A stretch of 64,000 nucleotides of DNA from Actinomycetota bacterium (GTDB lineage Bacteria > Actinomycetota > Aquicultoria > SURF-47). The stretch covers positions 78,536 through 142,535 of the forward strand of contig QZJE01000013.1 in NCBI GenBank assembly GCA_003599235.1. The letters are read 5' to 3'. Positions 5,923-63,614 of this stretch are shown here, piece after piece. Both the position numbers and the translations under genes were made by a program. The notes beneath the pieces are model-generated. The model was not told where the DNA came from. It saw nothing but the letters and a program-made list of their open reading frames with translations, and made no database searches. How positions within the stretch are numbered: position 1 is the first letter of the stretch; the number at the start of each line of letters is the position of its first letter.

Positions 5923-5924
5923 GA

Positions 5925-49212: not shown

Positions 49213-49227
49213 TCTAAGACCTTAGCG

Positions 49228-52200
49228 CTACCTTACAACCAACCAATTACCAGCTATATTATGCTGGTTGTTACAGGCTAGGTCAGTAGCATAGATAAAG
49301 TAACGGTAGGCGCCTTTTCTTAATCTAGCCCTGTACTTGTAATCACTAAGCTTGTTGATGTTTTTTACTCTTAAGTTTAGGATTTTAACGGTCTTCCAAA
49401 CTTTTTTAGCCTTTTTCTTACGGTCTTTTTTAATAATGACCTTTACAATTTTTTTAATTTTTATGGTCACCCTTGCTTTATTATCTGTATAAGGGTCAAT
49501 TACTTTGTATTTTAAAGTGGCTATCTTGCCTTTCTTAACTACTACTTTCTTAAGTGCTCTAGTCCTTGGCTTGGAGTTATCTATTTTGATAATAAAGGTT
49601 GAGGGTTCGCTCCAGTTGCCGTTATTGTCAACTGCTCTTAGGCTGAAATACCACGTTCCGTTACCTAAGCCATTGAATCCTTTAAATATTTCGATACCTT
49701 CGCTTACAGTATCAGCAACACTAAAGGGCGACTTACTTAGGCTATAGCTATAGCCGGCAATTCCTGAAACATCATCAGCAGAGAACAATACAGTAGGATT
49801 GTTATCTTTATAATATCCCGTGTTTGAGAAATGATTAGGACAAGCTATTTTGATATTAGCTGGCGGTTGATTGTCTACTGTATTATTAACTGGATGATTA
49901 TCAACTGGTGGATCTTCCTTAGGAAGCTCTTCTGGTTCTGGTTCAGGCGTAGGAGGAGTAACTTCTCCTTGATACTCATAAGCACCGATGTCTGGAGTAC
50001 CAACTCTAGCATTGCCGTCTTTGTCGGTTGCTGAAGCACCATCTGAGGTGCCTGCATTGATGGCAGGAGAGGTTGCTTGGAGATGGAAATCGTGGTTTGC
50101 ATAATTAGTAAGCTGAGGATCAATTCCTACTTTGCCATGAGCTTCCGGTGGTTGATTCCAAGTTTTCGTAGGATAAGCTAGGTTATAGTCTGCTTGAGCT
50201 GGAATTGAGTTATCTGTATAGGTCCAGCTGCCGCTTTGATAAAAAAGATTATTCTTAATAACCGTTCCAGTCGTTTCCATTCCATTTTGAGCTCTTGTAA
50301 TAATCGAGCCAAAATTCATGTCTATAAAAGTATTATTTAAAAAAGACAGGTTTTGACCAGCCATTAAGTAAAAACCATAAGAACCACATTTTTCAAATAT
50401 ATTATTCTTGATTACTACATTGCTTACAGGTCCACGGTAATTACCGCTTAGCATCATTATCTGATGGCCAATATTGTAAACATAATTGCCCTCGATAAGA
50501 ACATTATCGACCTTGTCAAATGTTTGGAAAGCATCCGTATGTGCAGTTGGTGGTACCTCTGATAAAAGAATGTCATGAATGTAATTGCTTCTAATGATTA
50601 GATTCTTACCAAAAAATCTCAAACCATCTTCATTAAGAGGATGAGAAATATCGTTATCTTCTACTAAGATATCGTAGCCGTGTATCTCTATCCCTTGGCC
50701 ACCGGCATAAGTAATCGTATTGCCCTTAATAATCGAGCCATAAATAGGCGAGATTGTTCCGTAGTCTTGACCAAAAATTGCTTGATACGCAAACCTTATG
50801 CCTGTGGCATTTGTGAAAGTATGGTGAATATAATTATTAATAATCTCTGAGTGACTACTTTGGACCCAAATACCTGACCCATCTCTCCAGTGGTTTAAGG
50901 TATTGGTTATTTCAAAACCCTCAACCCTAATATAGTCTTTTAATAGCGTAAATCCCTTGGTAACTACCACATCATTCTGATAGTTTTTGAAGGTAATTTT
51001 TGACCCTTCAGTGCCGGAATTGGCTGGTATTATGCGCTCATCATAGTTACCTTCTTTGACATAAACAGTATCCCCAGCCTGAACTGTGTTGGCGGCTTTC
51101 TGGATAGTTAAAAAAGGGCTGGTCTCAGAGCCATCATTGCTATCTGAACCGGTCTTGGCTACATAATAGTTTTTCGGCAAGCCTACCTTTATCTGCCTGG
51201 ATAAAACAGCCGACTCATTGCCGGCCGCATCCTTGGCTTTTACTTCAAAGGTGTAACTGCCTCTAGGCAGGCTTGCCAAAACTGCTTTTCCTTGGGTTTG
51301 CCAACTTGACCAAGAATTATTTTGGCCAACTAACCGGTATGAATAAAGTATGCTATTGGCTGTAGTCTCTGCTCTGGTTGAAAGGGAAACATCGTCTGTT
51401 CCGTACCAGCGCATTGTTACATCACTATTATCGGTGGCCAATGTAGCTGTGGGAAAGGTTGCAAGTGATATATCGGGTGCTTGGACATCTGCAGTAGCAG
51501 CTACTCCTTGAATGCTGCTTGTTAATTGGCTGCTATTTATACCTACTCCTTCTAAATACAGTGGAGACCGACCAAAAGTTATTTCTACGCTGTTACCGTT
51601 GACTACTTTGCTTACTTCATTGCCCATTAAGTCATAAGCTTTGATGTTTTCAGAAGATAAATTAAGAGTAATTTTTCGCTTAGAATTATCGTCAGTGCTC
51701 GGATAAATTATCATAAGCGGTGTGGCCAACCGGTTAAAGAGGTAAGCTTTAACATTTGTTCCTAAGTTAACCTCCCCTTGGCCAACTGAACCATCAAAAA
51801 GCTTAGCAAGTACGCTGTAAGCCACTCCTTTTGGCCTCAGAGTCCCATCGTATTCAAAAAGAGAATAAGATATCAAAAAATCTGGAGAAGTTGTATTTCT
51901 GGCATCGTAATAAAAATATTTCTTAAAGCCGGCACCAATACTTTCAGCAAAGTTTTGCACTTGCCATTCGGTTCTTTTACGGTAATCCCTGCCCCAGTCA
52001 GATGGCCTGGCATAGCTAATATCTAAGTTCTCCCACAAAAGAGATTGATAAAAGGTGTCGGTTCTAGCCCCGGTTTCCGAGTTCCAGGCATCTTTATTAG
52101 AGCTGCTTGCTAAACTTAAATAACCTGGTGTGTGTGAGCTGTTCATCGGAGGATAACGGTGAGAAGACCATATATCAGCATAGTTATTGCCAATCGTGTC

Positions 52201-53691
52201 TAGGACGCTTTGGACATAGTTAGTGTAGTAGGCCACCATTCCAACGATGTGAGTATCAGGGTCAGCTCTTTTGGCAGCATCATGGGCTGTTTGCAGTATT
52301 TTAGCGTAATACTGAGGATAGCTTCCTAGCCCACCTTCAGTATCTGGTTCGTTCCAAATCTCCCAGTAATCGACATTATTTTTGTAGTGGTTAACTACTT
52401 GATAGACATAATCATCCCACTTAGCCAAGAAGCCATTAAATGATTCATCGTCCCACTGACTTACATCGCTAGTACCTTTAGGCAGGGCCCAGGTGGGAAT
52501 GTGGGCAACTTCCGAACCGATAGTTCCCATTATTTTCATTCCATATTGTGCCGGCTTTGCTACTTTAGAATCTTGCCAAACAAAGCTATTGTCTGTTGGC
52601 TCGACGTAATACCATCTGAACATTTCTTGGCCGGTACTTAAGCTCCTATTCCATTTAACGCCAACTTTTTGCATCTGGGCTAGCCAGTAATCATAAAAAG
52701 GAACATGGGAACCAAAGATCGAGTTTTCATTGACAGCAGCAGTTTGAGACCTGGGAATTACCGAGTAATTAACCTCTTCTATGGTATCAGGATATCCTTC
52801 TAGCCACAGGATAGCCCTAAAAGCCCCTCGTTTGTTCGGACTTAAATCAAGGTTAGTTGTTGTTAGTGATTGGCCCGCTAAAGAAGAGTTTAGTTCTCCG
52901 GATTTAATTTTTTTATTGTAATAATCATATACTTCGTATTTTGTCTTAACTTCAACTGCTTGACTGTTGTTATAATGAAACAGTTGCATAGAGGCGGCTT
53001 CATCCTCGTAAAATAGATTACCGTCGTGAGAAGAAGATAAGCCAAGTTCGACATCTGAGGACGGATTGTAATCGCTTAAGGAACCTTCTTCTAACCGCAC
53101 AGCGTCTACCCAAACACTTTTGCCAGGGTAACCTTGGTGCTGGGGAATTATTTCAACTTGATACGTTGCTTCGGGATCAGCCACCAGATTACCCGACAAC
53201 GAATATCGTTGCCAGTCGGTTGTTAGATTAAAGCTTGCTTCTTTGTAGTCAAAGCTTCCATCCGCCTGGTTAGTGTTTTCTAGCCTAACTCTTATAGCTC
53301 CATTATTAAGATTGGATTTCATATATAAGGATAAGGTGTGATCTGTGCTGGACCTAACCTTATATATTTTCGAGATTAGTTTCTGGGCATTGTAGTTAGT
53401 ATCGTAGGGAAGCTTTACGCTTTTAGTGCCATGGACAGCCGTTGTGCCATCTATCATAGTTGAAGAAAGCGGAAATTGAACGTTTCCTGAGAGTCCCCAG
53501 CCGTGGCCAGTTCCTACCTCAAAGCTGGAATTTTCTATTAGATTAGGTTTTGAGCCCTCAGCCACTGATTGTTTGATAAAAAAAGTCGATAATGACTGGG
53601 TTAGCAAAGAGCCGATTAAAAGGATGCAGATAATAGCTACTGCTAAGTGGATTTCCTTTATTGTATTTCGCTTTTCAATCATAGAAAACAC
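49228..53691 (-). CDS. Giant secreted multidomain carbohydrate-active protein (1487 aa): CBM4_9-like, GH clan-A-like barrel, Y_Y_Y-like, right-handed beta-helix, Ig-like, hyper-basic C-terminal module
   Basis: GTG start 6 nt after the upstream giant gene. Signal anchor. NLIENSSFE..G..GW (CBM4_9-like). DYWEIWNEPD and AWNSETG (clan GH-A acid/base and nucleophile patterns). YYVAKTGSDSNDGSETSPFLTIQKAA ... DKDGNARVGTPDIGAYEYQG (beta-helix cassette). Pro-rich linker. GYSYSL...GTWYFSLRAVDNNGNWS. The tail is about one third K/R by my count. Confidence 0.8.
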   Translation of the reverse strand: MFSMIEKRNTIKEIHLAVAIICILLIGSLLTQSLSTFFIKQSVAEGSKPNLIENSSFEVGTGHGWGLSGNVQFPLSSTMIDGTTAVHGTKSVKLPYDTNYNAQKLISKIYKVRSSTDHTLSLYMKSNLNNGAIRVRLENTNQADGSFDYKEASFNLTTDWQRYSLSGNLVADPEATYQVEIIPQHQGYPGKSVWVDAVRLEEGSLSDYNPSSDVELGLSSSHDGNLFYEDEAASMQLFHYNNSQAVEVKTKYEVYDYYNKKIKSGELNSSLAGQSLTTTNLDLSPNKRGAFRAILWLEGYPDTIEEVNYSVIPRSQTAAVNENSIFGSHVPFYDYWLAQMQKVGVKWNRSLSTGQEMFRWYYVEPTDNSFVWQDSKVAKPAQYGMKIMGTIGSEVAHIPTWALPKGTSDVSQWDDESFNGFLAKWDDYVYQVVNHYKNNVDYWEIWNEPDTEGGLGSYPQYYAKILQTAHDAAKRADPDTHIVGMVAYYTNYVQSVLDTIGNNYADIWSSHRYPPMNSSHTPGYLSLASSSNKDAWNSETGARTDTFYQSLLWENLDISYARPSDWGRDYRKRTEWQVQNFAESIGAGFKKYFYYDARNTTSPDFLISYSLFEYDGTLRPKGVAYSVLAKLFDGSVGQGEVNLGTNVKAYLFNRLATPLMIIYPSTDDNSKRKITLNLSSENIKAYDLMGNEVSKVVNGNSVEITFGRSPLYLEGVGINSSQLTSSIQGVAATADVQAPDISLATFPTATLATDNSDVTMRWYGTDDVSLSTRAETTANSILYSYRLVGQNNSWSSWQTQGKAVLASLPRGSYTFEVKAKDAAGNESAVLSRQIKVGLPKNYYVAKTGSDSNDGSETSPFLTIQKAANTVQAGDTVYVKEGNYDERIIPANSGTEGSKITFKNYQNDVVVTKGFTLLKDYIRVEGFEITNTLNHWRDGSGIWVQSSHSEIINNYIHHTFTNATGIRFAYQAIFGQDYGTISPIYGSIIKGNTITYAGGQGIEIHGYDILVEDNDISHPLNEDGLRFFGKNLIIRSNYIHDILLSEVPPTAHTDAFQTFDKVDNVLIEGNYVYNIGHQIMMLSGNYRGPVSNVVIKNNIFEKCGSYGFYLMAGQNLSFLNNTFIDMNFGSIITRAQNGMETTGTVIKNNLFYQSGSWTYTDNSIPAQADYNLAYPTKTWNQPPEAHGKVGIDPQLTNYANHDFHLQATSPAINAGTSDGASATDKDGNARVGTPDIGAYEYQGEVTPPTPEPEPEELPKEDPPVDNHPVNNTVDNQPPANIKIACPNHFSNTGYYKDNNPTVLFSADDVSGIAGYSYSLSKSPFSVADTVSEGIEIFKGFNGLGNGTWYFSLRAVDNNGNWSEPSTFIIKIDNSKPRTRALKKVVVKKGKIATLKYKVIDPYTDNKARVTIKIKKIVKVIIKKDRKKKAKKVWKTVKILNLRVKNINKLSDYKYRARLRKGAYRYFIYATDLACNNQHNIAGNWLVVR

Positions 53692-53697
53692 TTTTTT

Positions 53698-56600
53698 CTA
53701 CCTTACAACCAACCAATTACCAGCTATATTATGCTGGTTGTTACCGGCTAGGTCAGTAGCATAGATATAGTAGCGGTATTTGCCTTTTCTAAGTTTTACT
53801 CTTAGCTTTTTAATGGAGATTTTATTAATGGGCTTGAGCCCTAGTCTTAGGACTTTAACTATTCTTTTGCCTCTTTTAATCTTGATTATTATTCTGGCCT
53901 TGTTGTTAGTATATGGATCTATTACTTTGTACCTAAGAGCAGCTAGCTTGCCCCGTTTAACCATTATTTTTCTAAGCGCTTTAGTCTTTGGCTTGTAGTT
54001 ATCTAGTTTTATGCTCTGAGACTGGATGCTGATATTGCCGGCATTGTCTACTGCTTTAATGGTTAAGTTGCATTCACCATTAAGCTTAGATGAGTTCCAA
54101 ATAAAAGAGCTAGAGGCAAGCGAGTAATAATTAGGACCAAAAGAGAAGCTGTGAATATCTTGATTGTTGCATTGTAGAGTTACTTCTTTTACTTTAGACA
54201 AACCATCACTAGAATTAACCCAGAGATCGATTAGTCCTTTGTATATCCTGTTGTCATCAATATTGCCTAAGCTTACCTGGGGAGCGGTGGTATCTATCAT
54301 TATCTTTTGATGGGTAGTCTCTGATGCATTGCCTTTGGTGTCTATGGCTTTTAGGTGAAAATACCAAATACCATCAGAGAGATTACTAAACTGCTTATTG
54401 CTAGCTGTTTGGTCTATTTCATTATCCGGATGTGTTGTCTCAACTTTATCTATTTCATAACTGTAACCGGCAACACCAGAATCATCAGATGAAGAGAAAC
54501 TAAATGAGGGGCTTCTGTCTGCATAATATCTTGAGCCTAATTGATGAGTGTTGCAGGTAACCTCTGGCTTTGCTGGTGGTGCGATATCAATTGCCGGCGG
54601 AGATGAAATCTCTTCGCTTGTACCTGTGGGAACATAGCTTGTGTCGTTAGTAATAAGTAGCTTATCTAGATAAGTGCTAGCTTCTCTTCCTCTAATAGTT
54701 AGGGTATGGGTACCAGTTGTTAGGTTAAAGAGTTTGGGATCATATTCAGGTGCTACAGGACTACCGGCGCCTCTTAAACAAACTCTATCCCAAGTCCAGT
54801 TAGATGAGTTCTCGGCTAGTAAAACATCCCAAACATCTTCCGGCAAACCATCTACTGTGATAAACACTGAGTCATTACCGGTTGTAGGGGCAATAACTCT
54901 GCCCCATATCAGATAATTACCCGCAGTTGTTACATTGAATTTGTAGATAGCCGTTCCTTGATTAGTTGTTGATGAGGATGTATAGCTTCCACCGGAGGCT
55001 AGAACATCGCTCCTTTCTGTCATGGGAGCTGCTAGAGCTCCATTTTCAGCCTCTAACCACAGATATTCATTATCACCCGATTGAACTGAGTTACTCACAT
55101 AAATGCTAATGGACTGTTCTGCTGTATTATTCGACGAATCATAAGCAACAACTTTTATAGTATGATTACCATTGGAAACAGAACTTGTGTCTAAGGCATA
55201 GCTGTATAGTGAAGAGGTGTCTTCTCCTGCTTTTATGCCGTCAACTAAAAACTCTACTTTTGATACTGCTGCGTCATCACTGGCATCAGCAATAATATCA
55301 ACTGTTCCAGAAACTTCTGCGTCACCAGTTGGATTAGTTATTGAAACCGTTGGGTTAGTTAAATCTGTAGTAGGTGTTCCCTGATATTCATACGCTCCAA
55401 TATCAACCGCTCCCACTCTGGGATTGCCGTCTTTGTCTTTATCCGGTGCCCCATCAGAGGTACCGGCATTGATTGCAGGTGAAGTTGCTTGGAGATGGAA
55501 ATCTCTAGCTAGGTAATCTGAATTATTAATATCTACAAATTTAGGATCTGCCCATATACTATGAGTTTGATTATGTGTTGTAGGAGTGCCACCTGGAACA
55601 TAAAACAAATTATAATCAACGTCAAAGAACTGATTTTGGTATGGGTCCCAACTGTCACCATAAAAAATATTATTTTTAAAAACGCCACTGGGATCTCCTG
55701 CATGAGAGGCCCAGCTTGCATCTCTAGTATCATAAATCCTTATTCCATATTGACCGTTGGCAAATACATTATTCATTACAGTCAAATCTTCGCCGCCCAT
55801 TCTGACATGGTAATTTCCGCCGCCTGAGAAAACATTTCCAATTAGTTTTAATCTGTCCACTTGTACATAGATTCCTAAATGTGAGCCGTCTTTGCCAGGA
55901 TTGCCTATAAACAAATTATTGCTGACTTCATTATCAGAAGCATACATTTGAATAGCGTCTGCGTGAGCAGGTGATATCGCATCAATATCGTGAAAGTAAT
56001 TATTCTGAATTATATTATTGGTTTCAGTGCTATCTATCCAAATGCCGTCTTCTACGTCATAGATTTCATTTCCTTCAATAATAAAGTTTGTGCAAACCCT
56101 CGACAGATCTACTCCTTTACCACTTGGGTGAGTAGTATCTGTTGCCGCTTCATAATTAGCTCGTCCAATTTTATTGTCTTTTACTAAGCAATTTGTGCTT
56201 TCTTGGAACTTAATAGAGAAAGCTCCGCCGGGACTTGGACCATCAGTATCATGGATATCATTGTTAACAATTTCCACTCCAGTGTGAGGGTTAGAATGAT
56301 AGGCGTACGAATTAGTAGTGATGGCAGCAGGATAGCAGTTTTTTATTTCAAACCCTTCGATTCGGATATAGCTGCTGTCTCCATCTAGATAGAAACCTCT
56401 ATTTGTTTTGTTATTATCAATTATTGGTTTTTCCCCGGGAAAATTCTTGAAAGTGATCATATTGCCAGGCGTTCCTGTCTTAGTTAGAGTGACTGTTTCA
56501 CTATAAGTTCCACCTCTTACATAAACAGTTTTTCCAGCGGTAGCAACATCAGCACCTTTTTGGATGGTGCGGTAAGGATTCGTTGTTGTGCCATCACCGG

Positions 56601-59600
56601 TTGTATCATTACCGGTAGTAGAGACATAAATTGCATTAGGGTCTGAGCCTTGATATTCATAAGCTCCGATAGTTGGCGGGTCAGAACGAGTATTGCCTTC
56701 GTAGTCAGCTGTTACTCCACTAATAGCGATACCGGCTCCGATAAGAGGACTGCCAGACAACGGTTTGAAATTTGAATCTATTAAAGGATCAACATTCCAT
56801 TGGTTATACGTACCTGCAGCATAAACAGCGTCTGGGCTACTGGTACATGGCCAAGCAAGATTATAATCAGTCGTCCAATTACTTATTCCGCCCGCATCCA
56901 TAAACGGTTTATGCACTGATGACCACCCGGGCTGATTGCCGTTTCTAATGAGAACATTATTCTTGGCTGTAACTGTTGCCGGACCATTAGTTGCGTATGT
57001 GTTAATAGCTGAATTTGCCACATTATGCAGGTAATTATTGTAGACTTCCACTGTGCCGGAAGTTACGGTTATAGAGCCGGCTGCCTCTTCGATAACATTA
57101 TTGCGAATAATATAGGAAATTGTCTTACCGGTAGCTTGCGCTAACATTGCAAATGCGCCATTAAAATCGTACATGTGGTTATTTTCAATAATGCCACCGC
57201 CATCTCCACCTAAGGCTTGCTGCAGGCAATCCATGTGGGGACTGCCCCCAGTCCCGGTATTTTCACTATCGAGATAATCGTGAAATGTATTGTTGGCTAT
57301 ATAAACACTCTCCCCGGAGTTATCAATGGCATCAGTATCCTCTACAAAGGCACTATTTACTATAGATTGACCGTGACTGAAATCGCAATTGGTAACAGTG
57401 CCATTATCTCCCCATATTTCCAGCGCATCAGAGTAATTATAAGAAAAAGTACAGCCGGTTACAGTGAGGTTAGAGACGTTTTGTGCAGATGATACATTGC
57501 TAGATCTAACACCTCCCTTGGGGCAGTGATGAATGTTGCAGTTTTTAATAGTTACGTAAGCGCCATTCAGAGCTATTCCGGCATCAGCATTGACCTGTGA
57601 TATACGTCTGGTTGCTTGAATATCAAAACCGTCGATTGTAATACGGTCGCATGGAATACTTGTTCTGCCGATAAGAAAACCTTTTGTTAATGGCATCCCC
57701 ACACCCTTAAAGGTTATTCCTTGCGTCAAACCGGATTTGAGTAAAGCAACCCGTCCTGCGTAAGCTGAATCTCCATTGCAGGGATAAGTTGTAGGTGCCG
57801 GGTCGTCCCTATAGTCCCCGGGACCAACTTGAATAGTATCGCCGTCTTGAACAACCCCTGCCTCTATTGCATAAGCTGCTTTTTGGATGGTTAGAAATGG
57901 CTCGGCCTCCGTGCCTGGGTTAGAATCAGAACCTGTTTTGGCTACATAGTAAGTCTTTGGTTGATACTCGAAGGCCCCTATGTCGGGTGCTCCAACTCTC
58001 TCATTACTGTCTTTATCAGTTGCTGGGGTATTAGCATCAGAGATGCCAGCATTAATAGCCGGAGAAGTTGCTCCAATATGATAGTTTTTGGCACTGGTAC
58101 TTACAAATTTAGGATCTAAATTCCAAACCTTATGTGCTTCTTGTTGCGACATTAAGGGTGGATTGGATAAATCAACCGGATAGTAAAGATTATTGTCTGC
58201 CTCTTGAATAAAACTTTGATTTATAGTGTAGGGCAGATGACCGCCATTGTTGAAAACCTCTCCGTTGTTCTTATAAAAAATATTATTCTTTATTACCGCA
58301 TGGTCGCAGGGATGACCAACAGCATTGCTGCCATTATCCCACTCTGCAATATAGATATCTGAAACTTTTGCATTAATAAACGTGTTGTTAACGAACGTCA
58401 GATAAGGCACATTGTATATCGTAAACCCATTATAAATTTCACTAATAGCTCCCTCAAAGACATTATTTCTAAAAGTAAGGTGATCTACATGGTGCTCAAT
58501 GTCCTGCCAATCCTTATATCCTCCAGTTATCTGAGCCCATTGAACTTGAGCATCATGGACATAATTTCCTTCAAAGATAATATTGCTTGCATCAGAAAAA
58601 GTTTGAAAAGCGTCTATGTGGGGTGCAGAATCGGGATTGTCAGACAACCAATAATCGTGGATGTTCTCATTTCTAATAATATGCCCTGTTCCTGAAAAGC
58701 GGTGAGCATCAGTATCTGAGCTGTTAACAGCTTGGCCTTGATACTTAACACGCCCATGAGAAAGATCGTTTCCTTCTACTAGCCAATTACTCCCGCCAAC
58801 CTCAATAGCAGAGTTGCAATGGTTTGTGATTGTATTATTCTTGATAATATTTCCGACAGGTTCGTTTGAACAATCATACATTGCTCCAATACCATTCCAA
58901 CGAATATCGTGAATATAGTTGTTTTCAATAACGTTATTACTTCCGTTGATTGTAATGCCCCACCGATCATAATAATCTGGAGGTGTTTGGGTAATTTCAA
59001 AACCTTTAATTTTGATATATGAAGTTAATGCACTCCGGGTTGGGCCTATAGTGAAACCTTGAGTAACAGGCTTATCGTCACCAGGAAATCCCTCAAAAGT
59101 AATATAGTTTTCAGCCTGACCCGATACACTTAACTTAATCCTCTCATTATAAGTCCCTTCTTTCACATAAACAGTATCTCCAGCTTGGGCTACGTTAGCT
59201 GCTTTTTGAATTGTCAGCCAGGGTTGGCTTTGCGTGCCTGGGTTAGAATCAGAGCCTGTTTTGGCGACATAATAAGTAGCTGGTATTCGATTAACAGTGA
59301 CAGTTACAGCATTGCTTTCTATTCCATTAGCAGAAGCTTTAACATCGTAATTATCAGGAACTATGTTATTAAACAGCCCAAACTCGTTGGCGCCTGACCA
59401 GGTAAAGGTAATCCCAGGTATTTCATTATCTGAAACATCATAACCTTTAGCACTAAATAAAATGGTATCTCCAGAATCAATAGTCTGAGGAGCTGATGGT
59501 GTTATTTCTATATGGTTGAGAATAGGTGACGGATTAAGAACCTCATTAACGGTTTTTACTTCTATCTCAGGATGGTTATTCTTGATTTCTGAGACAATAC

Positions 59601-62600
59601 TTTGAAAAGTAGCCACTTTAGCGACATCATCTGGAGCTTCGTGCTGGAATATCAACCAGCCACCATTGGCCTCAATTTCCGCCAATTTAGTCTGGACCGT
59701 GCCAAGAGAAGCGTAGGTAAGACCAGTTATTTTGAGATTATATTTATTGTTAACAGGAAACGTGTTAGTGCCGTAACTGCAAACGTTATAATCATGATTG
59801 CTTTGTACAATAGCATTAAGCGCATCTATATCAAGGGCATTAACATGAGAGAAGCCTAGGTTTGAAAAACCATTAGCAACTAGCCAATTTTTAGCCTCTT
59901 CTACTTGAAATTGATAATTAGCTACTCCCCCCGATAGGTTATTAGCTGAATGAGAGCCAATTTCCCAACCAGCAGCCTGTAATGTTTGCAGATTGGTAGT
60001 GCTTAGCCTGGTTGAGGTAGAATTAATAAGAGCCGTATCTACGTAGGTTACACCTTTGTAGCCGGCTGCGCTTAAAATGGGATAATAATCATCTATCTGA
60101 GCTTTATTGTTATCAGTGAAAGTAAAAGAAACTACCGGCTTATCCGAGGTAGCTCCACCACTACTACTGTTATTTACAGTCACCGTAATGGCTGATGTTT
60201 CAGTGGCATTGCCCGCAATGTCATAAGCTTTAGCTTTGATAGTATGACTTCCGTTAGTAGCAGTTGAGGAATTCCAGCTATAGCTATATGGAGAAGCGTT
60301 ATCGGAATTGGCTACACTGTCATCTATTAAGAACTCTACTTTTTCTACTCCTGAGCCACCATCATTATCAGCGGCTGTAGCGCTTAAACTAACGCTACCT
60401 GAGACTGTTGCTGCATCAGAAGGCGCAGTTAAAGTTACTGTTGGGTTAATAGCCTCTTGTGAAGAACTACCAGACTGTTTTTCTCCGGTTACTACCTCCA
60501 ACACTGTTTTTACCGGAATTCCTTTAGCTTTAACCTTAGCTATTACTTCTTCAAAAATTTCTACCTTATCAGCTGTGTGAGCATCATCCATCCACCCGTG
60601 ATCAGCAAAGATAATCCACTTTTTTTGTTCTGTAGCATTTGTTAAATAAGTTTCAATATTGTTCATCTTTTGCAATCTTGCTGCTTCATTATTTGCTTGC
60701 TTAATCGGATCAGGATCAGGCGGATTTGTAGATGTAATATCTATTCCTACAGCACCAAGGTTATAAGAATCTGTTACTGGTAGACTGTTATACACAGTAG
60801 AAACTTTACGATTATAGGGATGATAACTCTCAACAAGAGGATCTAGTACTTCGTTAGTTCTAGTAAAGGGAGCCGCAAATCCAGGATTGGAAAATCCTTT
60901 AGAAATTAACCAATCTTTAGCATCGCTAATAGTCGGCAAATAATCCTCGGCAGTATAGGATCTATCATCACCATTGGCGTCTTTTAATGCAGGCCAGTGG
61001 TTGGTAGTATGGGAACTTATTTCCCAGCCAGCGGTCTTCATTTGGTTAAGCTGGCTCAAACTTAATTTATCGCTATTACCTACACTGCCGGTAATAGCAT
61101 AGACTACCCCCGGGTAATTCTCGGCATTAAGTGCCGGAAAATAATTGTATTGCTCTTTATTTGAATCATCAAAAGTAAAAGAGACAATTGGGCCGTTTTG
61201 GACAATAAGCGATACAGAGTCCTCGGCACTGTTTCCAGACTTGTCATAGGCCTTAATTTTAATAATATGCTTTTTGGCCGTATCGACAGTTGTAGAATCC
61301 CAAGTAAAGCTGTACGGCTTAGATATGTCGGTATCTTTTAATTCATCATTAACATATAGCTCTGCCTTATCTAGCTCGGAGTCTCCCTCATTATCGCTTG
61401 CATCAGCGTTGATAGTGACATTGCCGGCAACCGGCGCATTATCAGCCGGGCTTGTTATAGAAACTGCAGGGTCAATGGTATCAGCAGCTGTGTAGTCTGA
61501 TATATCAATAACCGCCATGCTCATTGGCGGCATAGAAACAGAAAAAGAACCACCACTAATACTAGCACTTGAGCTTATCGGAGTCTGAGTAGAAAGAGCG
61601 CTCCAATCATTGTATGAGTTTATATTGGCTGTTCCATTCTTTACTCCATCCAGATTAACGGTTATATTATGAATATTGCTAACGCTCTTGTTTAGTAACA
61701 ATATTTTATAGTTACCAGCAGTGTCTTTTGTTGCTAAGCTCTCAACTCTTTTAGCCTTGCCAAGTAATGTGGGATGAGTCTCTTGACCCCCAGAACTTTG
61801 ATATAAAACACTTGGCTTATCATCTGTTGTCACATTGGATGATAAAACCTGACGGCTAGAAGAATTGAAGCTACTTAAAACCTTCATGGCATATCCCATG
61901 GAAGTTATTTGACGAGTTGGCGAAATTAGCTCATCTGTATCAGAGCCGGCGAAGATATCCCAAAATGTATTGGCTTTAACTCCTACATTGGCGGTTTTAG
62001 AAATAACACTGGTGAAATAAATTGCCTTCCAAATATCAGTAGAGTTAGGCTCTTGATTAGTATTTGTGGGATAATGATACTGGCCTAAACCATCGTAGTT
62101 AAACTCGGTACACAAAAGATCAATATTAGGTTTGCCAAAATCAGCAAGTTTTTGCTGAACAGTATATGGTTCTTGGCCCTCCCATTTATAAGTGCCATCA
62201 TATTTATAAGTAGAATCCACTATTGCTTGCTTAGCTTGATCATCATTAGTAATCCCAGAAAAATTCCTAGGACTTCCTCCGAAACTGTACGCATGATAGG
62301 CAAAGAAGTCAGCGTTATATGAGGGATTAGAATAAATTGTCGAGTATGGTTCATACCCATACTCTTGAACTCCGATAGCTTTAGACCCTTGGCCAGCTGG
62401 AAAAGGGCCTACTTTTATATCGGGGGTAAGAGATTTTATGGCTTCATATGCTTTTTTATAGAGATTTTTGTAAAGCGTCATATCTTCAGCAATGTCCCTT
62501 ATATATAAATAATCACCAAATCCACTTACATTTGCAGTTTCATTAAATGCTATCGATTGAGTAGTTTGATCTGCGATATAATTTGAATACCTTGTTGAGC

Positions 62601-63426
62601 CCGTAGGAAAAGTTGGTTTGATAGCAACCGCTGACCATTCCGTATAATTATTAATCTCGGTTACCACTTGACCATAACTTCGAGAAGAACCATCAGAGTT
62701 GAGTAAATTGACTGTATGTTCAACTTGCCAGCCAGAGCTATTACGTTCTAAGTAAAGGTAATCGCCCTCTACTCTTACTCTTCTACTATAGCTTGCATCT
62801 TCATTGGTTACTGTAAAATGAGGATTAACATTATTATTCGTTAAGGGTTTATAAAAAACAGGCGGCCTTTGGATGCCTTCCATAGGAGCAATGTCTATTT
62901 CGTTGCCAATTTCGACATATTTTACGTTCACTCCCTGATCGACCAGATATTTGATTAAATTAGACCAAGCATAAGCTACTTCATCTAGGTTTAGTGATCC
63001 GTCAGGATTTAACATGGCCGTACTAATCTCGTCATTTAAGGTATAGAGAATCGGCATGTTAAGATCTTTCCACCAAGCAATCTGGTTATTTATCGATCCT
63101 TCAGTCCCTGTATCCCAATTCCAAACGCCATGAGCCGGATAAAGCTCTTCCATATTAATGCGTACTTTTTGACCATGGCCAGCCCGCATTAATGACAACC
63201 CTGCCTGGTTAATAAGAGCATTATTTTCATCTTTTGGCCAAAAGCTTCCTGCCCCCCAAGGGGAAAGATTTCCACCCAAAAGATCATTGCTAAAAGTGCT
63301 GACAACAGTATTAGAGATGTTGACTGTCGATGTTTGGATATCAGCATTTGAGTGAGCAATAAAAAGGTAAGATAAAGAATTAGTTAAAAGAGCACCTATT
63401 AAGAAGATGCAGATGAATACCACCAA
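53698..63426 (-). CDS. Giant secreted multidomain carbohydrate-active protein (3242 aa): GH clan-A-like barrel, 2 CE4-like modules, Big_2, 3 right-handed beta-helix cassettes, CBM-like, several Ig-like modules, hyper-basic C-terminal module
   Basis: Single uninterrupted ORF. VEIGNE ... LLCTEFNY (GH-A-like). SFTFDDS/SHTTNH and SFTFTDN/SHSANN (NodB-like). Three cassettes each open with (Y/I)YV(A/S).TG.D and close with GN.R....(D/T)IGA(Y/F)EYQ. EYLWLEAENG CBM-like module. GYSYEID...DGIWYFHLKAIDTKGNAS. By homology to the paralog the real start is probably ATA/ATC at 63474/63477. Confidence 0.8.
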   Translation of the reverse strand: MVVFICIFLIGALLTNSLSYLFIAHSNADIQTSTVNISNTVVSTFSNDLLGGNLSPWGAGSFWPKDENNALINQAGLSLMRAGHGQKVRINMEELYPAHGVWNWDTGTEGSINNQIAWWKDLNMPILYTLNDEISTAMLNPDGSLNLDEVAYAWSNLIKYLVDQGVNVKYVEIGNEIDIAPMEGIQRPPVFYKPLTNNNVNPHFTVTNEDASYSRRVRVEGDYLYLERNSSGWQVEHTVNLLNSDGSSRSYGQVVTEINNYTEWSAVAIKPTFPTGSTRYSNYIADQTTQSIAFNETANVSGFGDYLYIRDIAEDMTLYKNLYKKAYEAIKSLTPDIKVGPFPAGQGSKAIGVQEYGYEPYSTIYSNPSYNADFFAYHAYSFGGSPRNFSGITNDDQAKQAIVDSTYKYDGTYKWEGQEPYTVQQKLADFGKPNIDLLCTEFNYDGLGQYHYPTNTNQEPNSTDIWKAIYFTSVISKTANVGVKANTFWDIFAGSDTDELISPTRQITSMGYAMKVLSSFNSSSRQVLSSNVTTDDKPSVLYQSSGGQETHPTLLGKAKRVESLATKDTAGNYKILLLNKSVSNIHNITVNLDGVKNGTANINSYNDWSALSTQTPISSSASISGGSFSVSMPPMSMAVIDISDYTAADTIDPAVSITSPADNAPVAGNVTINADASDNEGDSELDKAELYVNDELKDTDISKPYSFTWDSTTVDTAKKHIIKIKAYDKSGNSAEDSVSLIVQNGPIVSFTFDDSNKEQYNYFPALNAENYPGVVYAITGSVGNSDKLSLSQLNQMKTAGWEISSHTTNHWPALKDANGDDRSYTAEDYLPTISDAKDWLISKGFSNPGFAAPFTRTNEVLDPLVESYHPYNRKVSTVYNSLPVTDSYNLGAVGIDITSTNPPDPDPIKQANNEAARLQKMNNIETYLTNATEQKKWIIFADHGWMDDAHTADKVEIFEEVIAKVKAKGIPVKTVLEVVTGEKQSGSSSQEAINPTVTLTAPSDAATVSGSVSLSATAADNDGGSGVEKVEFLIDDSVANSDNASPYSYSWNSSTATNGSHTIKAKAYDIAGNATETSAITVTVNNSSSGGATSDKPVVSFTFTDNNKAQIDDYYPILSAAGYKGVTYVDTALINSTSTRLSTTNLQTLQAAGWEIGSHSANNLSGGVANYQFQVEEAKNWLVANGFSNLGFSHVNALDIDALNAIVQSNHDYNVCSYGTNTFPVNNKYNLKITGLTYASLGTVQTKLAEIEANGGWLIFQHEAPDDVAKVATFQSIVSEIKNNHPEIEVKTVNEVLNPSPILNHIEITPSAPQTIDSGDTILFSAKGYDVSDNEIPGITFTWSGANEFGLFNNIVPDNYDVKASANGIESNAVTVTVNRIPATYYVAKTGSDSNPGTQSQPWLTIQKAANVAQAGDTVYVKEGTYNERIKLSVSGQAENYITFEGFPGDDKPVTQGFTIGPTRSALTSYIKIKGFEITQTPPDYYDRWGITINGSNNVIENNYIHDIRWNGIGAMYDCSNEPVGNIIKNNTITNHCNSAIEVGGSNWLVEGNDLSHGRVKYQGQAVNSSDTDAHRFSGTGHIIRNENIHDYWLSDNPDSAPHIDAFQTFSDASNIIFEGNYVHDAQVQWAQITGGYKDWQDIEHHVDHLTFRNNVFEGAISEIYNGFTIYNVPYLTFVNNTFINAKVSDIYIAEWDNGSNAVGHPCDHAVIKNNIFYKNNGEVFNNGGHLPYTINQSFIQEADNNLYYPVDLSNPPLMSQQEAHKVWNLDPKFVSTSAKNYHIGATSPAINAGISDANTPATDKDSNERVGAPDIGAFEYQPKTYYVAKTGSDSNPGTEAEPFLTIQKAAYAIEAGVVQDGDTIQVGPGDYRDDPAPTTYPCNGDSAYAGRVALLKSGLTQGITFKGVGMPLTKGFLIGRTSIPCDRITIDGFDIQATRRISQVNADAGIALNGAYVTIKNCNIHHCPKGGVRSSNVSSAQNVSNLTVTGCTFSYNYSDALEIWGDNGTVTNCDFSHGQSIVNSAFVEDTDAIDNSGESVYIANNTFHDYLDSENTGTGGSPHMDCLQQALGGDGGGIIENNHMYDFNGAFAMLAQATGKTISYIIRNNVIEEAAGSITVTSGTVEVYNNYLHNVANSAINTYATNGPATVTAKNNVLIRNGNQPGWSSVHKPFMDAGGISNWTTDYNLAWPCTSSPDAVYAAGTYNQWNVDPLIDSNFKPLSGSPLIGAGIAISGVTADYEGNTRSDPPTIGAYEYQGSDPNAIYVSTTGNDTTGDGTTTNPYRTIQKGADVATAGKTVYVRGGTYSETVTLTKTGTPGNMITFKNFPGEKPIIDNNKTNRGFYLDGDSSYIRIEGFEIKNCYPAAITTNSYAYHSNPHTGVEIVNNDIHDTDGPSPGGAFSIKFQESTNCLVKDNKIGRANYEAATDTTHPSGKGVDLSRVCTNFIIEGNEIYDVEDGIWIDSTETNNIIQNNYFHDIDAISPAHADAIQMYASDNEVSNNLFIGNPGKDGSHLGIYVQVDRLKLIGNVFSGGGNYHVRMGGEDLTVMNNVFANGQYGIRIYDTRDASWASHAGDPSGVFKNNIFYGDSWDPYQNQFFDVDYNLFYVPGGTPTTHNQTHSIWADPKFVDINNSDYLARDFHLQATSPAINAGTSDGAPDKDKDGNPRVGAVDIGAYEYQGTPTTDLTNPTVSITNPTGDAEVSGTVDIIADASDDAAVSKVEFLVDGIKAGEDTSSLYSYALDTSSVSNGNHTIKVVAYDSSNNTAEQSISIYVSNSVQSGDNEYLWLEAENGALAAPMTERSDVLASGGSYTSSSTTNQGTAIYKFNVTTAGNYLIWGRVIAPTTGNDSVFITVDGLPEDVWDVLLAENSSNWTWDRVCLRGAGSPVAPEYDPKLFNLTTGTHTLTIRGREASTYLDKLLITNDTSYVPTGTSEEISSPPAIDIAPPAKPEVTCNTHQLGSRYYADRSPSFSFSSSDDSGVAGYSYEIDKVETTHPDNEIDQTASNKQFSNLSDGIWYFHLKAIDTKGNASETTHQKIMIDTTAPQVSLGNIDDNRIYKGLIDLWVNSSDGLSKVKEVTLQCNNQDIHSFSFGPNYYSLASSSFIWNSSKLNGECNLTIKAVDNAGNISIQSQSIKLDNYKPKTKALRKIMVKRGKLAALRYKVIDPYTNNKARIIIKIKRGKRIVKVLRLGLKPINKISIKKLRVKLRKGKYRYYIYATDLAGNNQHNIAGNWLVVR

Positions 63427-63585
63427 TAAATGAATTTCTTTAACTGTCTTTCTTTGCTCTAATACAGAAAATATGATCGGCTCCTTTTATTTACTAACCC
63501 TTTGCTTTACTATCGGCAAATAACTATCAATTCTTAAAAATAAGCTAGCCGGATAATTAAGCGCCCACACTTTCATCTATCTTTA

Positions 63586-63614
63586 ATTATACCGCTGATT
63601 AGAGTATTGGTAAA
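63586..63614 (-). promoter_or_regulatory. Putative promoter of the giant-gene operon
   Basis: The minus strand reads TTTACC (63614-63609), 17-nt spacer, TATAAT (63591-63586), about 110 nt upstream of the coding start. Confidence 0.35.

Follow-up and report, generated by a model that had tools for sequence, protein, structure and literature searches.

Gene organization of the locus

What do two giant, adjacent genes of carbohydrate-active character do in a deep-branching, low-GC Actinomycetota genome, and on whose polysaccharide would their products act? The window analysed here is a stretch of 64,000 nucleotides (64 kb) whose minus strand carries both open reading frames, and all features of A and B given below lie on that strand. 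Gene A (53698..63426) encodes 3,242 aa from its first canonical start, a TTG, and gene B (49228..53691) encodes 1,487 aa from a GTG; the database copy of B (P0005) starts at Met4 and is 1,484 aa long. A spacer of 6 nt (TAG-aaaaaa-GTG) separates the two, so that reading of the ORFs and spacer bears out the initial annotation of co-directional ORFs of 3,242 and 1,487 aa lying 6 nt apart. No further ORF of at least 100 aa, no tandem repeat and no Rfam match was found in the A/B region.

No canonical start of A exists upstream of 63426, and the end of the locus previously placed at 63489 corresponds to the in-frame upstream stop (TAA) of A. Homology to the first 16 codons of B, with five synonymous changes and conservative replacements only, shows that the 16 codons from an ATA at 63474 to the TTG at 63426 are translated. 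A putative Shine-Dalgarno sequence (AAGGAG, 63481..63486) can be read 6 nt 5′ of this ATA, which is likely the real start of A and would extend the gene to 53698..63474 and its product to about 3,258 aa. A promoter-like site upstream of A (TTTACC-17 nt-TATAAT, 63586..63614), recognized by its match to the consensus, is the top-scoring σ70-type match of the region (10/12 positions). An intrinsic terminator hairpin with A and U runs at its flanks (49171..49214) is predicted 14 nt 3′ of the B stop (ΔG −23.5 kcal/mol, z −5.45), with an equally good fold in none of 200 shuffles. A two-gene operon is the best explanation of this organization.

The surrounding genes are housekeeping genes (uvrC, ogt, rapZ, whiA, gap-pgk-tpi-gpmI, cysS and ddl). 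No Wzx/Wzy or glycosyltransferase (GT) cluster adjoins A and B within the 64-kb window, the sole glycosyltransferase-like match being a weak one at 25255-26493, 23 kb away. Neither sugar-uptake nor regulator genes were seen flanking the pair.

Module composition of protein A

The N-terminal export signal predicted for A (63343..63474) has a charged n-region, then a hydrophobic core, LLVVFICIFLIGALL, and then AHSNA-D. It is 46-60% identical to the N-terminus of B (53560..53691, KQSVA-EG), also a predicted export signal, and in both proteins an Ala-X-Ala-like site lies C-terminal to the hydrophobic stretch; the A N-terminus may act as a signal peptide or as a signal anchor.

Next comes a clan GH-A (β/α)8 barrel with a C-terminal β-sandwich (A_GH, 61477..63339), recognized by profile and in an AF2 model. 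Its predicted acid/base E176 (EIGNE) and nucleophile E441 (TEFNYDG) and its HAYSF motif are invariant in the homologues (n = 4, all that were found). Searched against the PDB, the family profile finds GH39 xylosidases (E 3.5e-4 to 0.01), and the AF2 model, of low confidence (pLDDT 56, pTM 0.58), matches GH-A barrel-plus-sandwich enzymes only (GH79/44/51/39/30, E about 1e-12). No Pfam family scores above threshold on this module, which represents an unclassified clan GH-A family. The GH-A barrel first proposed from the EIGNE and CTEFNY patterns is thus upheld by the invariant motifs and the fold match, and so is the insertion splitting it, which measures about 130 aa (62464..62856) against the ~110 aa claimed. 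The insertion is β-rich, lies directly after the acid/base strand, lacks a counterpart in all four homologues and is peculiar to A; it had no family match in the HMM search, and AF2 pLDDT there is about 30.

Across A, HMM searches returned matches to Big_7 (three), Polysacc_deac_1 (two), DUF1565/Beta_helix/Pel9A-like (three), choice-of-anchor-Q (three), Big_13 and Big_3_3. A Big_7 Ig-like domain (a, 61192..61470), whose family profile matches PDB Ig modules of a chitodextrinase and a GH9 enzyme, precedes a polysaccharide deacetylase module (CE4a, 60457..61191; Pfam Polysacc_deac_1, 54.6 bits) with intact Asp-Asp and His-x-x-His motifs (TFDDS, HTTNH). Both motifs align with the PDB polysaccharide deacetylase 6dq3 (E 2e-5), and the CE4a homologues at loci L116 and L083 retain [TS]FDDG and HT[AS]DH. 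Beyond a second Ig-like domain of Big_7/OmpL47 type (b, 60163..60438; Pfam/NCBIfam HMMs) lies the other Polysacc_deac_1 stretch (CE4b, 59557..60144; TFTDN, HSANN), a CE4 paralogue that matches an NCBIfam HfsH-like family (E 4e-10) and nothing in the PDB. Alignments show the loss of both the catalytic Asp and the second, metal-binding His from CE4b, which is thus probably non-catalytic; the two CE4 modules originally described are both present, CE4a intact and CE4b degenerate.

Two other assignments in A fared less well. The module called Big_2 is an Ig-like domain with just a weak match to Big_1 (59281..59529, E 0.0013), and the module called CBM-like, a possible β-sandwich (54637..55071), has GH115_C as its sole match (E 0.017) and none among PDB sequences. 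A third Big_7 domain (c, 55132..55365), the top Big_7 stretch (aa 2692-2759), lies before this putative sandwich, and two Ig-like domains with Big_13-like and Big_3_3 HMM matches (53995..54579) lie after it; the Big_13-like domain is 40% identical to the Ig domain of B.

Module composition of protein B

HMM matches in B are to CBM_4_9, Y_Y_Y, Beta_helix and choice-of-anchor-Q. The CBM4_9 module (53077..53544; Pfam CBM_4_9, E 1.1e-6, 29.5 bits versus a 25.9 cut-off) is followed by B_GH (51541..53052), in which the family profile finds an N-terminal β-sandwich, a GH39-like GH-A barrel and a C-terminal β-sandwich. Residues N447-E448 (WNEP), H511/Y513 and E539 (NSETG) are invariant or nearly so in a 19-sequence alignment, in line with the second, different GH-A barrel read earlier from WEIWNEPD and NSETG. 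The profile matches the PDB entry 5JVK, which is GH39wh2 (PMC6933502), at 1.6e-20 over about 420 positions, and PslG at 6e-15; judged by these profile matches, B_GH is GH39-like and belongs to the PslG/GH39wh2 group. Assignment to GH10 was rejected because the PDB match to GH10 (about 1e-13) is partial as against the fuller GH39wh2 and PslG matches; the Pfam GH10 match is borderline and spans profile positions 41-167 of 311. C-terminal to the barrel are a Y_Y_Y Ig-like domain (51175..51450; Pfam, 44.8 bits), a β-helix cassette, and a Pro/Thr/Glu linker with an Ig-like domain (49573..49965; weak Big_13/fn3 match, NCBIfam OmpL47-type E 2.3e-5). The Pfam and NCBIfam matches agree with the CBM4_9, Y_Y_Y and single cassette first described for B.

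Four diverged beta-helix cassettes

Cassette 1 (57958..59280) comprises a DUF1565/Pel9A-type N-cap, a right-handed β-helix and a choice-of-anchor-Q C-cap. Cassettes 2 (56647..57957) and 3 (55375..56634) were delimited by HMM matches and cassette comparison, and cassette 4, in B (49966..51174), shows 41-42% BLAST identity to cassette 1. Pairwise identities among the four are 29-49%. The AF2 model of cassette 1 (pLDDT 72, pTM 0.77) matches GH120, GH136, PL9, PL6, PL31, RbmB, GH87, AlgE and phage tailspikes. The duplication of cassettes with common entry and exit motifs, noted from the outset, has yielded four diverged paralogues of confirmed fold.

The N-cap motif YYV..GSD.N.G....PF.TIQ.A and the fold are common to the cassettes, PL9 lyases and the GH120 xylosidase XylC, with cassette profile E-values of 3.7e-22 (Pel9A, 1RU4), 2e-10 (BT4170, 5OLQ) and 6e-7 (XylC, 3VST); Pel9A also has the C-terminal ..DxGAFE cap. 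No GH120 or PL9 catalytic residues could be aligned in the cassettes: the PL9 Ca/Lys site region is unaligned, GH120 D382/E405 fall on non-conserved positions, and the invariant motifs of the cassettes are their own (IH[DH], HD, HxDxxQ). Cassette scores reach 56 bits against the NCBIfam PelN cut-off of 740 and 49 bits against the PelX cut-off of 1490. "Multi-catalytic", as these proteins were first called, hence applies to the GH modules and CE4a, whereas catalytic residues are not assignable in the cassettes. The exit motif of all four, D.GN.R....DIGAYEYQG, is NF041518 (NCBIfam "choice-of-anchor Q"; 99.2 and 46.5 bits versus a cut-off of 25). NCBIfam defines this family descriptively and assigns it no function; in A and B it is found not only ahead of the terminal anchor region but also internally, where it separates cassettes.

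A basic C-terminal domain family

Both proteins end in a strongly basic domain, Ig-like in A (53701..53994; 98 aa, pI 11.5, 30 Lys+Arg) and slightly longer in B (49231..49572; 114 aa, pI 10.8, 36 Lys+Arg). Lys and Arg make up about 31% of the tails, whereas the protein bodies have a pI of 4.6 (A) and 5.1 (B). The tails are 56-68% identical, and their final 93 nt are 94% identical. An exhaustive profile search recovered 453 representative proteins at E ≤ 1e-3. Among 151 proteins with the domain, namely A, B and all but one of the 150 representatives listed, the complete domain ends at most 5 aa from the C-terminus in 132. The family has a median pI of 10.9 and diverse, secreted cargo (S8 proteases, NHL, fn3, CARDB, BNR). 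Neither Pfam nor NCBIfam has a family for it, and it has the last 25 columns alone in common with Y_Y_Y (hhalign 91.6%). The hyper-basic tail pointed out earlier is thus a genuine, unnamed C-terminal domain family. All 29 GTDB loci recovered are from Actinomycetota, several genomes having 2-3 copies; RJQ32099.1 (an "Actinobacteria bacterium" MAG) is a cluster member of another tail-bearing protein.

LPXTG, SLH and choline-binding anchors are absent from A and B, as originally stated. B-type modules elsewhere are fused to varied anchors (dockerin, PG_binding_1, an unclassified repeat, cadherin-like domains). A and B are probably held at the cell wall, and we infer that the tail might bind the wall by charge.

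Modules recur near polysaccharide-synthesis genes

No full-length homologue of A or B was found; the modules are found elsewhere, encoded by separate genes that lie next to each other. Locus L116 reads GT4, Wzx, GT4, GT4, a Big_7+fn3+CE4 protein of 1,335 aa (30% identical to the Big_7-CE4a region of A), GT4 and an A-type GH. Three loci (L116, L117, L118), one of them with the Wzx flippase, share the gene order CE4 protein, GT4, A-type GH, and L081 reads GT4, a Big_7/cadherin protein, A-type GH. One B-type gene lies 3′ of Wzx, a methyltransferase and three GT4 genes, and another lies 3′ of GT4 and AsnB. L083 (GC 33%) has three giant genes in tandem, one each for a CE4, a B-type module and a β-helix; two of the three have their own N-terminal module in common, and all three their own C-terminal module.

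Proposed role and alternatives

We cautiously favour, at slightly better than an even chance, that A and B are surface-held enzymes processing a self-made extracellular polysaccharide, as PslG, PelA and PgaB do. A polymer of the cell's own is the likeliest target because the modules are elsewhere separate genes in or beside Wzx/GT4 loci. Each protein would be exported by a Sec-type N-terminal signal and kept at the surface by its very basic Ig-like C-terminal domain binding the anionic envelope, with Ig-like domains spacing carbohydrate-active modules between the two ends. Each would contribute one retaining clan GH-A glycosidase, and A would add an active-looking CE4 de-N/O-acetylase beside the dead copy; binding modules are present too, and the four cassettes may bind glycan, or possibly cleave or epimerise it. 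The pair would have arisen by fusion of modules which are separate, neighbouring genes in or beside polysaccharide-synthesis loci of other bacteria, and its job would be to trim, deacetylate and remodel the exported polymer (capsule, EPS or wall glycopolymer). By analogy, fusion enzymes tethered to the wall would here take on a PslG/PelA/PgaB-like role at the exterior of a monoderm cell. Against this reading stand the low confidence of the A_GH model and the cassettes' lack of alignable GH120 or PL9 catalytic residues.

The main rival, possible though clearly less probable, is that these are surface-held depolymerases feeding on exogenous plant, algal or microbial polysaccharides (acetylated xylan, pectin-like), like the multimodular, SLH- or dockerin-borne enzymes (xylanases, pectate lyases) known from Clostridia and Caldicellulosiruptor. 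GH39/GH10-like, CE4, PL9/GH120-like β-helix and CBM4_9 modules also build plant-cell-wall degrading enzymes. Such foraging is further suggested by the borderline Pfam GH10 match, by GH10/GH39 xylanases and xylosidases among PDB relatives, and by the cassette N-cap, which matches the GH120 xylosidase and PL9 lyases. One B-type homologue is named endo-1,4-beta-xylanase at source (P0006), another carries a dockerin (P0012), GT genes are missing from two of five B-type neighbourhoods analysed, and no EPS locus adjoins A/B in the window, all of which counts against a self-made polymer. On the other side, GT4 and/or Wzx occur in 4/4 A-type and 2/5 B-type neighbourhoods, where no sugar transporters or catabolic genes were seen beside the genes. 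Over its full length B has its top structural relatives in GH39wh2 and in PslG, an EPS hydrolase, rather than in xylanases; the GH10 match is limited to part of the profile, and A/B themselves have no flanking uptake or regulator genes.

An antagonistic role, in which A and B would degrade capsule, EPS or wall glycans belonging to other bacteria as phage depolymerases do, e.g. during biofilm invasion or dispersal, is improbable. In its favour, the cassettes are similar in fold to phage tailspikes and to RbmB, the matrix lyase of V. cholerae; the B cassette N-cap matches a PHROG tail family (E 2.8e-6); and the B-type gene P0008 lies 3′ of a β-helix gene where a phage structural module (portal, protease, major head) ends. 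However, P0008 has a signal-peptide-like N-terminus and a contig-end position and may be a host gene bordering a prophage; tblastn against 50,697 phage records gave one match, weak and partial, and tailspike β-helices match no better than cellular enzymes.

Even less probable is a structural or adhesive protein, an adhesin or sheath whose enzyme-like domains are glycan-binding lectins only. Adhesins commonly have β-helix plus Ig arrays, CE4b is already degenerate and the cassettes lack assignable catalytic residues, but strict conservation of the GH Glu/Asn-Glu pairs and the CE4a metal/base motifs at 20-55% family identity argues that catalysis is retained. The least credible reading, that the giant ORFs are chimeras from collapse or mis-joining across repeated cassettes, draws on the metagenome-assembled source, the lack of an independent assembly of these genes and the paralogy of the four cassettes and of the two tails, against which cassette DNA identity is at most 80% over stretches of 135 nt or less, the sole near-identical stretch (93 nt at the A/B 3′ ends) lies outside the cassettes, domain boundaries are in frame and clean across 14 kb, and GC content is uniform throughout.

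Comparison with known systems

The catalytic residues, fold and tail family support the early reading of extracellular megaproteins with several catalytic modules, probably acting on surface or envelope polysaccharide. The architecture, at first not recognised as any type, is that of a multimodular CAZyme whose modules are elsewhere separate genes in polysaccharide-synthesis loci; the size and arrangement of A and B are unusual, the component modules of known kinds.

EPS loci are known to contain GH and deacetylase genes, and PelA (GH166 + CE4) and PgaB/BpsB (CE4 + GH153) are two-domain fusions that modify exported EPS (PMC4928890, PMC5933820, PMC9894940). The GH-CE4 fusion recurs in A (GH + CE4a), and BpsB is among the weak PDB matches of CE4a. 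A differs in its GH-A barrel, in being 3-5 times larger, and in its two CE4 copies, three β-helices and wall-type anchor; its host is monoderm and the protein would be extracellular, whereas PelA and PgaB are periplasmic.

PslG (GH39, Pseudomonas aeruginosa psl locus) and GH39wh2 (Bacteroides cellulosilyticus, 5JVK) match the B_GH barrel and its flanking sandwiches, with the clan GH-A Asn-Glu and Glu residues conserved at an identity below what Pfam GH39 can score. PslG adjoins polysaccharide-synthesis genes, as do B-type genes elsewhere, whereas no EPS locus surrounds B in the window; B also adds CBM4_9, Y_Y_Y, a β-helix cassette, an Ig domain and the basic tail.

Gram-positive multimodular CAZymes (SLH- or dockerin-anchored, as in Caldicellulosiruptor) likewise combine catalytic modules and CBMs with Ig/fn3 spacers and a C-terminal surface module. 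In A and B the anchor is an unnamed basic Ig-like domain instead of SLH, dockerin or LPXTG, the GH modules fall outside Pfam thresholds, and the neighbourhood evidence favours a self-made polymer.

Two giant genes in an apparent single transcription unit

The adjacent giant genes A and B are both encoded on the minus strand (A, 53698-63426, 3242 aa from its first canonical start, TTG; B, 49228-53691, 1487 aa from GTG). The initial annotation had described two co-directional giant ORFs, and both are present, with the spacer TAG-aaaaaa-GTG read directly in the sequence; its upper coordinate, 63489, corresponds to an in-frame upstream stop and not to the gene start. A promoter-like TTTACC-17-TATAAT match is positioned upstream of A (63614-63586, minus strand), and a hairpin followed by a U-run is located 14 nt past the B stop (dG −23.5 kcal/mol, z −5.45). 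Based on these two signals, the pair looks like one transcription unit. No further ORF of ≥100 aa, tandem repeat or Rfam match was found in the A/B region. Convergent with B, and having a bidirectional terminator in common with it, is a 117-aa ORF (48801-49154, plus strand) with a lipoprotein-like signal (LLAAC), a very basic Trp/Tyr-rich body and no Pfam match.

The 16 codons 5′ of the TTG of A, beginning with ATA at 63474, encode IFSVLEQRKTVKEIHL, and the N-terminus of B begins VFSMIEKRNTIKEIHL; the only differences between them are five synonymous changes and some conservative replacements. An AAGGAG is positioned 6 nt upstream of ATA 63474 (within 63426-63489, minus strand), and no canonical start codon occurs between the upstream stop and TTG 63426. 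Initiation at this TTG would cut off the charged n-region of the export signal. The 16 codons are evidently translated, and we infer that A starts at a non-canonical ATA (or ATC) or that its start codon carries a base error.

At their 3′ ends, the last 93 nt of A (53698-53790) and of B (49228-49320) are 94% identical, and the remainder of the tail is ~60-68% identical at the protein level. The near-identical extreme C-terminus, which reads ...YATDLA.NNQHNIAGNWLVVR, suggests either recent gene conversion or strong constraint on this segment. It is the only near-identical stretch, as the DNA of the beta-helix cassettes described below is at most 80% identical over at most 135 nt. At this low identity a repeat-driven collapse across the cassettes appears unlikely, and misassembly is one of the less likely explanations of the fused genes. 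A metagenome scan with B returned only homologues of the N-terminal module (≤50% identity), and the fused genes were not recovered from any independent assembly.

Modules of protein A

Following the export signal, residues 30-650 of A comprise a putative clan GH-A barrel with a beta-sandwich (A_GH), for which we found only four homologues among 5.8 billion sequences (37-58% identity). The proposed acid/base N175-E176 (EIGNE) and nucleophile E441 (TEFNYDG) are invariant in all five family members, as is HAYSF, and both catalytic positions fall on strands in the AF2 model. No Pfam family scores above threshold (Glyco_hydro_39, 11.5 bits against a cut-off of 26, E 0.13), a single-sequence PDB search yielded nothing meaningful, and the family profile reaches GH39 xylosidases in the PDB at only E 3.5e-4 to 0.01. 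The AF2 model matches only GH-A barrel-plus-sandwich enzymes (GH79, 44, 51, 39 and 30; E ~1e-12, target TM 0.5-0.6); given its low confidence (pLDDT 56, pTM 0.58), the (beta/alpha)8 fold of clan GH-A is supported rather than proven. An insertion splitting the barrel is indeed present and unique to A (residues 191-321, absent from 4/4 homologues), although it measures ~130 aa and not ~110 aa as first estimated. A_GH is a GH-A family that is very small, very rare and unclassified, and the insertion is peculiar to A.

Downstream of A_GH, A continues with Big_7, CE4a (60457-61191), Big_7, CE4b (59557-60144), an Ig-like domain and three cassettes, and ends with Big_7, a candidate CBM-like sandwich, two Ig-like domains and the tail. 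Both of the NodB/CE4-like modules initially proposed are CE4 homologues, but catalytic motifs are intact only in CE4a. This module scores 54.6 bits with Pfam Polysacc_deac_1 (threshold 23.1), and its TFDDS and HTTNH align with PDB 6dq3 and with the canonical CE4 encoded elsewhere in the window, and homologues retain them; CE4a lacks the motif 3 Arg, and its motif 5 His is one position off. CE4b reads TFTDN (first Asp to Thr) and HSANN (second His to Asn), so that the catalytic Asp and one metal-binding His are lost, with fold homology retained (a second Pfam stretch; HfsH at E 4e-10). Single-sequence PDB searches with CE4b and with the CBM-like module gave nothing meaningful, and the latter is a candidate assignment only, its match being GH115_C at E 0.017.

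Beta-helix cassettes

The three cassettes of A (420-441 aa each) and cassette 4 of B are 29-49% identical to one another. Their entry motif is a DUF1565/Pel9A-type cap, common with GH120 XylC and PL9 lyases, and their exit motif is the NCBIfam choice-of-anchor-Q (NF041518; 99.2 bits over three stretches in A and 46.5 in B, cut-off 25). Pfam (Beta_helix, 67.8 bits; DUF1565, 63.3; Pel9A-like, 55.5) and the AF2 model of cassette 1 (pLDDT 72, pTM 0.77) agree on a right-handed beta-helix, bearing out the shared motifs and the fold that had been read from the translations. The Foldseek neighbours of the model are all carbohydrate-active (GH120, GH136, PL9, PL6, PL31, RbmB, GH87, AlgE epimerases and phage tailspikes), and searching viral models brought no gain in specificity over the PDB. 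The fold is shown by these agreeing lines, and any enzymatic activity of the cassettes is putative.

We considered two specific families. PL9 catalysis was rejected: the cassettes score far below the NCBIfam equivalog cut-offs (PelN, 56 versus 740 bits; PelX, 49 versus 1490 bits), and the Pel9A alignment covers caps only (chain residues 17-168 and 263-398), leaving the Ca2+-binding Asp cluster and catalytic Lys of PL9 unaligned. GH120 catalysis was rejected because the catalytic XylC residues Asp382 and Glu405 are opposite non-conserved cassette residues in a 3VST profile alignment, where the strong match spans chain residues 2-75 only. The cassettes carry their own invariant IH[DH], HD and HxDxxQ motifs. 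HxDxxQ was rejected as a general family signature, as it is missing, with the other invariant motifs, from a related beta-helix protein in locus L083.

Modules of protein B

B consists of an export signal, CBM4_9, a beta-sandwich, a GH-A barrel with a C-terminal sandwich (B_GH), Y_Y_Y, cassette 4, a Pro/Thr/Glu linker, an Ig-like domain and the tail. The CBM4_9 module predicted at the outset is recovered at E 1.1e-6, together with Y_Y_Y. That B contains a second, different GH-A barrel is likewise confirmed: N447-E448 (WNEP), H511/Y513 and E539 (NSETG) are invariant or nearly so in a 19-sequence family alignment, and the family profile matches GH39 structures, with 5JVK, the GH39wh2 of Bacteroides cellulosilyticus (PMC6933502), at 1.6e-20 over ~420 positions, PslG at 6e-15 and GH39 xylosidases at ~1e-12. 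Pfam GH39 does not list B itself, and the distant family members P0020 and P0029 have precomputed PF01229 matches. GH10 was rejected: its Pfam match is borderline and partial (22.2 bits against a cut-off of 22.1, profile positions 41-167 of 311), PDB GH10 xylanases match over the strand 3-4 region only, and the profile search favours GH39. As the GH10 match is partial and the GH39 match wide, the GH10 score is a clan-level match only, and by profile comparison B_GH is classed as GH39-like.

A C-terminal domain family in Actinomycetota

The tail, a basic C-terminal Ig-like domain, measures 98 aa in A (pI 11.5, 30 Lys+Arg) and 114 aa in B, and the bodies of the two proteins are acidic (pI 4.6 and 5.1). 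The tail gave no matches in a word-indexed search, and it took an exhaustive profile comparison with 1.84 billion representatives to identify 453 proteins at E ≤ 1e-3 (38 at E ≤ 1e-10), and the hyper-basic tail is thus a genuine C-terminal domain family. Of 151 domain-bearing proteins (149 of the 150 listed representatives, plus A and B), 132 have the full domain ending ≤5 residues from the C-terminus, and the median tail pI is 10.9. Carriers have Sec-type N-termini, and their cargo includes S8 subtilases, NHL propellers, fn3 arrays, CARDB, CBM96/DNRLRE and BNR. We found no Pfam or NCBIfam model that covers the tail, and by profile-profile comparison only its last 25 columns (G-Y-x-F-x-V-x-A-x-D-x-A-G-N) relate to Y_Y_Y (91.6%).

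To scan GTDB we used a tail pattern built on a narrower alignment, a 35-sequence alignment being too diverse. All loci with the pattern (29/29) belong to Actinomycetota, mostly Thermoleophilia, and several genomes have 2-3 copies; the first tail-related genome match (L082) is fragmentary, being cut by an assembly gap. Neither Pfam nor NCBIfam reports an LPXTG, SLH, CWB/choline-binding, LysM, PG_binding or dockerin module in A or B, in agreement with the absence of a known anchor noted initially, and both proteins end ...NWLVVR. Strictly C-terminal, multi-copy and lineage-wide, the tail looks like a surface-anchoring or sorting module as far as its sequence distribution indicates, and its charge suggests that it may bind anionic wall polymers.

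Within the window, the tail is carried by A and B only. A secreted 736-aa protein with Asp-box/BNR-like repeats (35881-38091, plus strand; only a weak Pfam match, DUF6242) ends in a different hyper-basic stretch of ~110 aa (KKRKRWVWVWRLIARKRTNKK...) that the tail HMM does not detect. This C-terminus shows no significant similarity to the basic ORF at 48801-49154 (E 0.45). Secreted proteins with basic C-termini may be a recurring feature of this genome.

Chromosomal setting

The chromosomal genes around A and B are of ordinary kinds: uvrC, ogt, rapZ, whiA, gap, pgk, tpi, gpmI, cysS and ddl, with genes for a class V FBPase, glycerate kinase, an amidase_3, a small canonical CE4 and four P-type ATPases. 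PADLOC returned no matches. UvrC is at most 47% identical to that of any GTDB species representative found, with Actinomycetota MAGs as the best matches. The source is most likely a deep, low-GC Actinomycetota MAG encoding at least five tail proteins; besides A and B (B being P0005 in the protein database), P0038 (cluster member RJQ32099.1, C4562_03470), RJQ32608.1 and RJQ32564.1 are ascribed to this genome.

The four P-type ATPase genes (9865-12654, 14043-16901, 20609-22651 and 28026-30686) fall within 21 kb, an unusual density, and three encode cation-transporting types in which both N- and C-terminal ATPase domains are present. The class V fructose-1,6-bisphosphatase (FBPase_3, the archaeal-type FBP aldolase/phosphatase; 30891-32000) is encoded beside the small CE4 and glycerate kinase, here in an apparent Actinomycetota genome. 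A BNR_4 + PKD protein (23469-25253), a weak glycosyltransferase-like ORF beside it (25255-26493) and a ROK kinase are the window's only other glycan-related genes.

Homologues of the modules in other genomes

No full-length homologue of A or B was found in the collections searched, and their modules recur elsewhere as separate genes. In L116 (GC 66%), the gene order is GT4, Wzx, GT4, GT4, a 1335-aa Big_7+fn3+CE4 protein, GT4 and an A-type GH (a homologue of A_GH); the CE4 protein is 30% identical to the Big_7-CE4a stretch of A over 346 aa. The order CE4 protein, GT4, A-type GH is kept in L117 and in L118, a Coriobacteriales MAG, and L081 contains GT4, a Big_7/cadherin protein and an A-type GH. 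In L117, two tandem A-type paralogues follow the CE4 protein and GT4 gene (2865-7331), and the CE4 gene of L118 is apparently frameshift-split. The high-GC A-type homologues P0003 and P0004 (L116, 10001-12541) have a conserved beta-rich C-terminal module (...GKWALRAYAPGDGGHVATYS..YVIVK), possibly another anchor type.

Homologues of B_GH (B-type) are found in several settings. One tandem pair of paralogues is situated behind Wzx, a methyltransferase gene and three GT4 genes, and P0006 is preceded by GT4 and an AsnB-like gene. Altogether, homologues of A_GH, CE4a and B_GH are encoded in or near EPS-type loci in L116, L117, L118, L081, L115 and the P0013/14 contig. A PG_binding_1 module is present in P0016 and its neighbour, and a dockerin in P0012. 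L083 (2-12519, GC 33%) encodes three tandem giant genes: CE4+Big_7, a B-type protein (43% identity over 899 aa), and a DUF1565 beta-helix with a choice-of-anchor-Q cap. The same C-terminal repeat module (DLWNIPxGNN...), different from the A/B tail, is present in all three, and the two with complete 5′ ends have a common coiled-coil N-terminus (KLKELExKIxELD); the trio is a parallel solution with a different anchor. These neighbourhoods and varied anchors indicate that the set of GH, CE4 and beta-helix co-occurs across distant lineages, often beside Wzx/GT4 and with interchangeable surface anchors.

In L085 (1-12700), a phage structural module (portal, protease, major head) is directly followed by a beta-helix gene and then, at the contig end, by the gene for the B-type protein P0008, which has a signal-peptide-like N-terminus. 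P0008 may be a secreted depolymerase carried by the phage, or else belong to the host at the edge of a prophage. A tblastn search of a phage collection with the B-type module gave one weak, partial match.

Proposed function

Alongside the observed module identities, conserved catalytic residues and homologue neighbourhoods, the best-supported interpretation is that A and B are surface-held fusion enzymes that remodel the cell's own polysaccharide. The proteins would be exported and kept at the surface, probably tethered there, and would hydrolyse, deacetylate and otherwise remodel a polymer that the cell presumably makes itself. A serious though less probable rival is foraging, in which A and B act on foreign glycans: no EPS locus adjoins the two genes in the window, and plant-cell-wall degrading enzymes are built from the same module families. 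Antagonism and a purely structural role are both less likely.

If remodelling of a self-made polysaccharide is correct, A and B are a natural Rosetta stone in which a GH-A hydrolase, a CE4 deacetylase and beta-helix modules are fused, predicting that these families act on one polymer and linking gene families that lie dispersed and without annotation in the polysaccharide loci of several phyla, uncultivated Actinomycetota among them. Three items are directly testable: the B-type as a GH39-like family widely fused to differing surface anchors, the A-type as a very small unclassified GH-A family, and the unnamed C-terminal domain (453 representative clusters), which may show how proteins are retained at the surface in deep-branching Actinomycetota. 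A bolder joint reading, which we offer only tentatively and consider doubtful, takes the tail as an undescribed Actinomycetota-wide envelope targeting or anchoring signal, A and B as tethered tailoring enzymes in a new extracellular-polysaccharide pathway, A_GH as a new GH family and the cassettes as a new activity. The tail would then play the part that SLH, LPXTG or the T9SS C-terminal domain plays elsewhere, marking a whole surface proteome, and the cassettes, with their invariant HxDxxQ site, would have a new beta-helix enzyme activity.

The role proposed for A and B resembles that of PslG, PelA and PgaB, which process polysaccharides in well-studied EPS systems (PMC4928890, PMC5933820, PMC9894940), but no Wzx or GT genes adjoin A and B within the 64-kb window. 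Because they can disperse biofilms, hydrolases of this matrix-processing class also have practical interest (PMC4928890). Both multimodular surface CAZymes and GH+CE4 EPS-processing fusions belong to known kinds; what is new here is the scale and combination of modules, the rare GH-A family with its insertion, and the unnamed Actinomycetota C-terminal domain.
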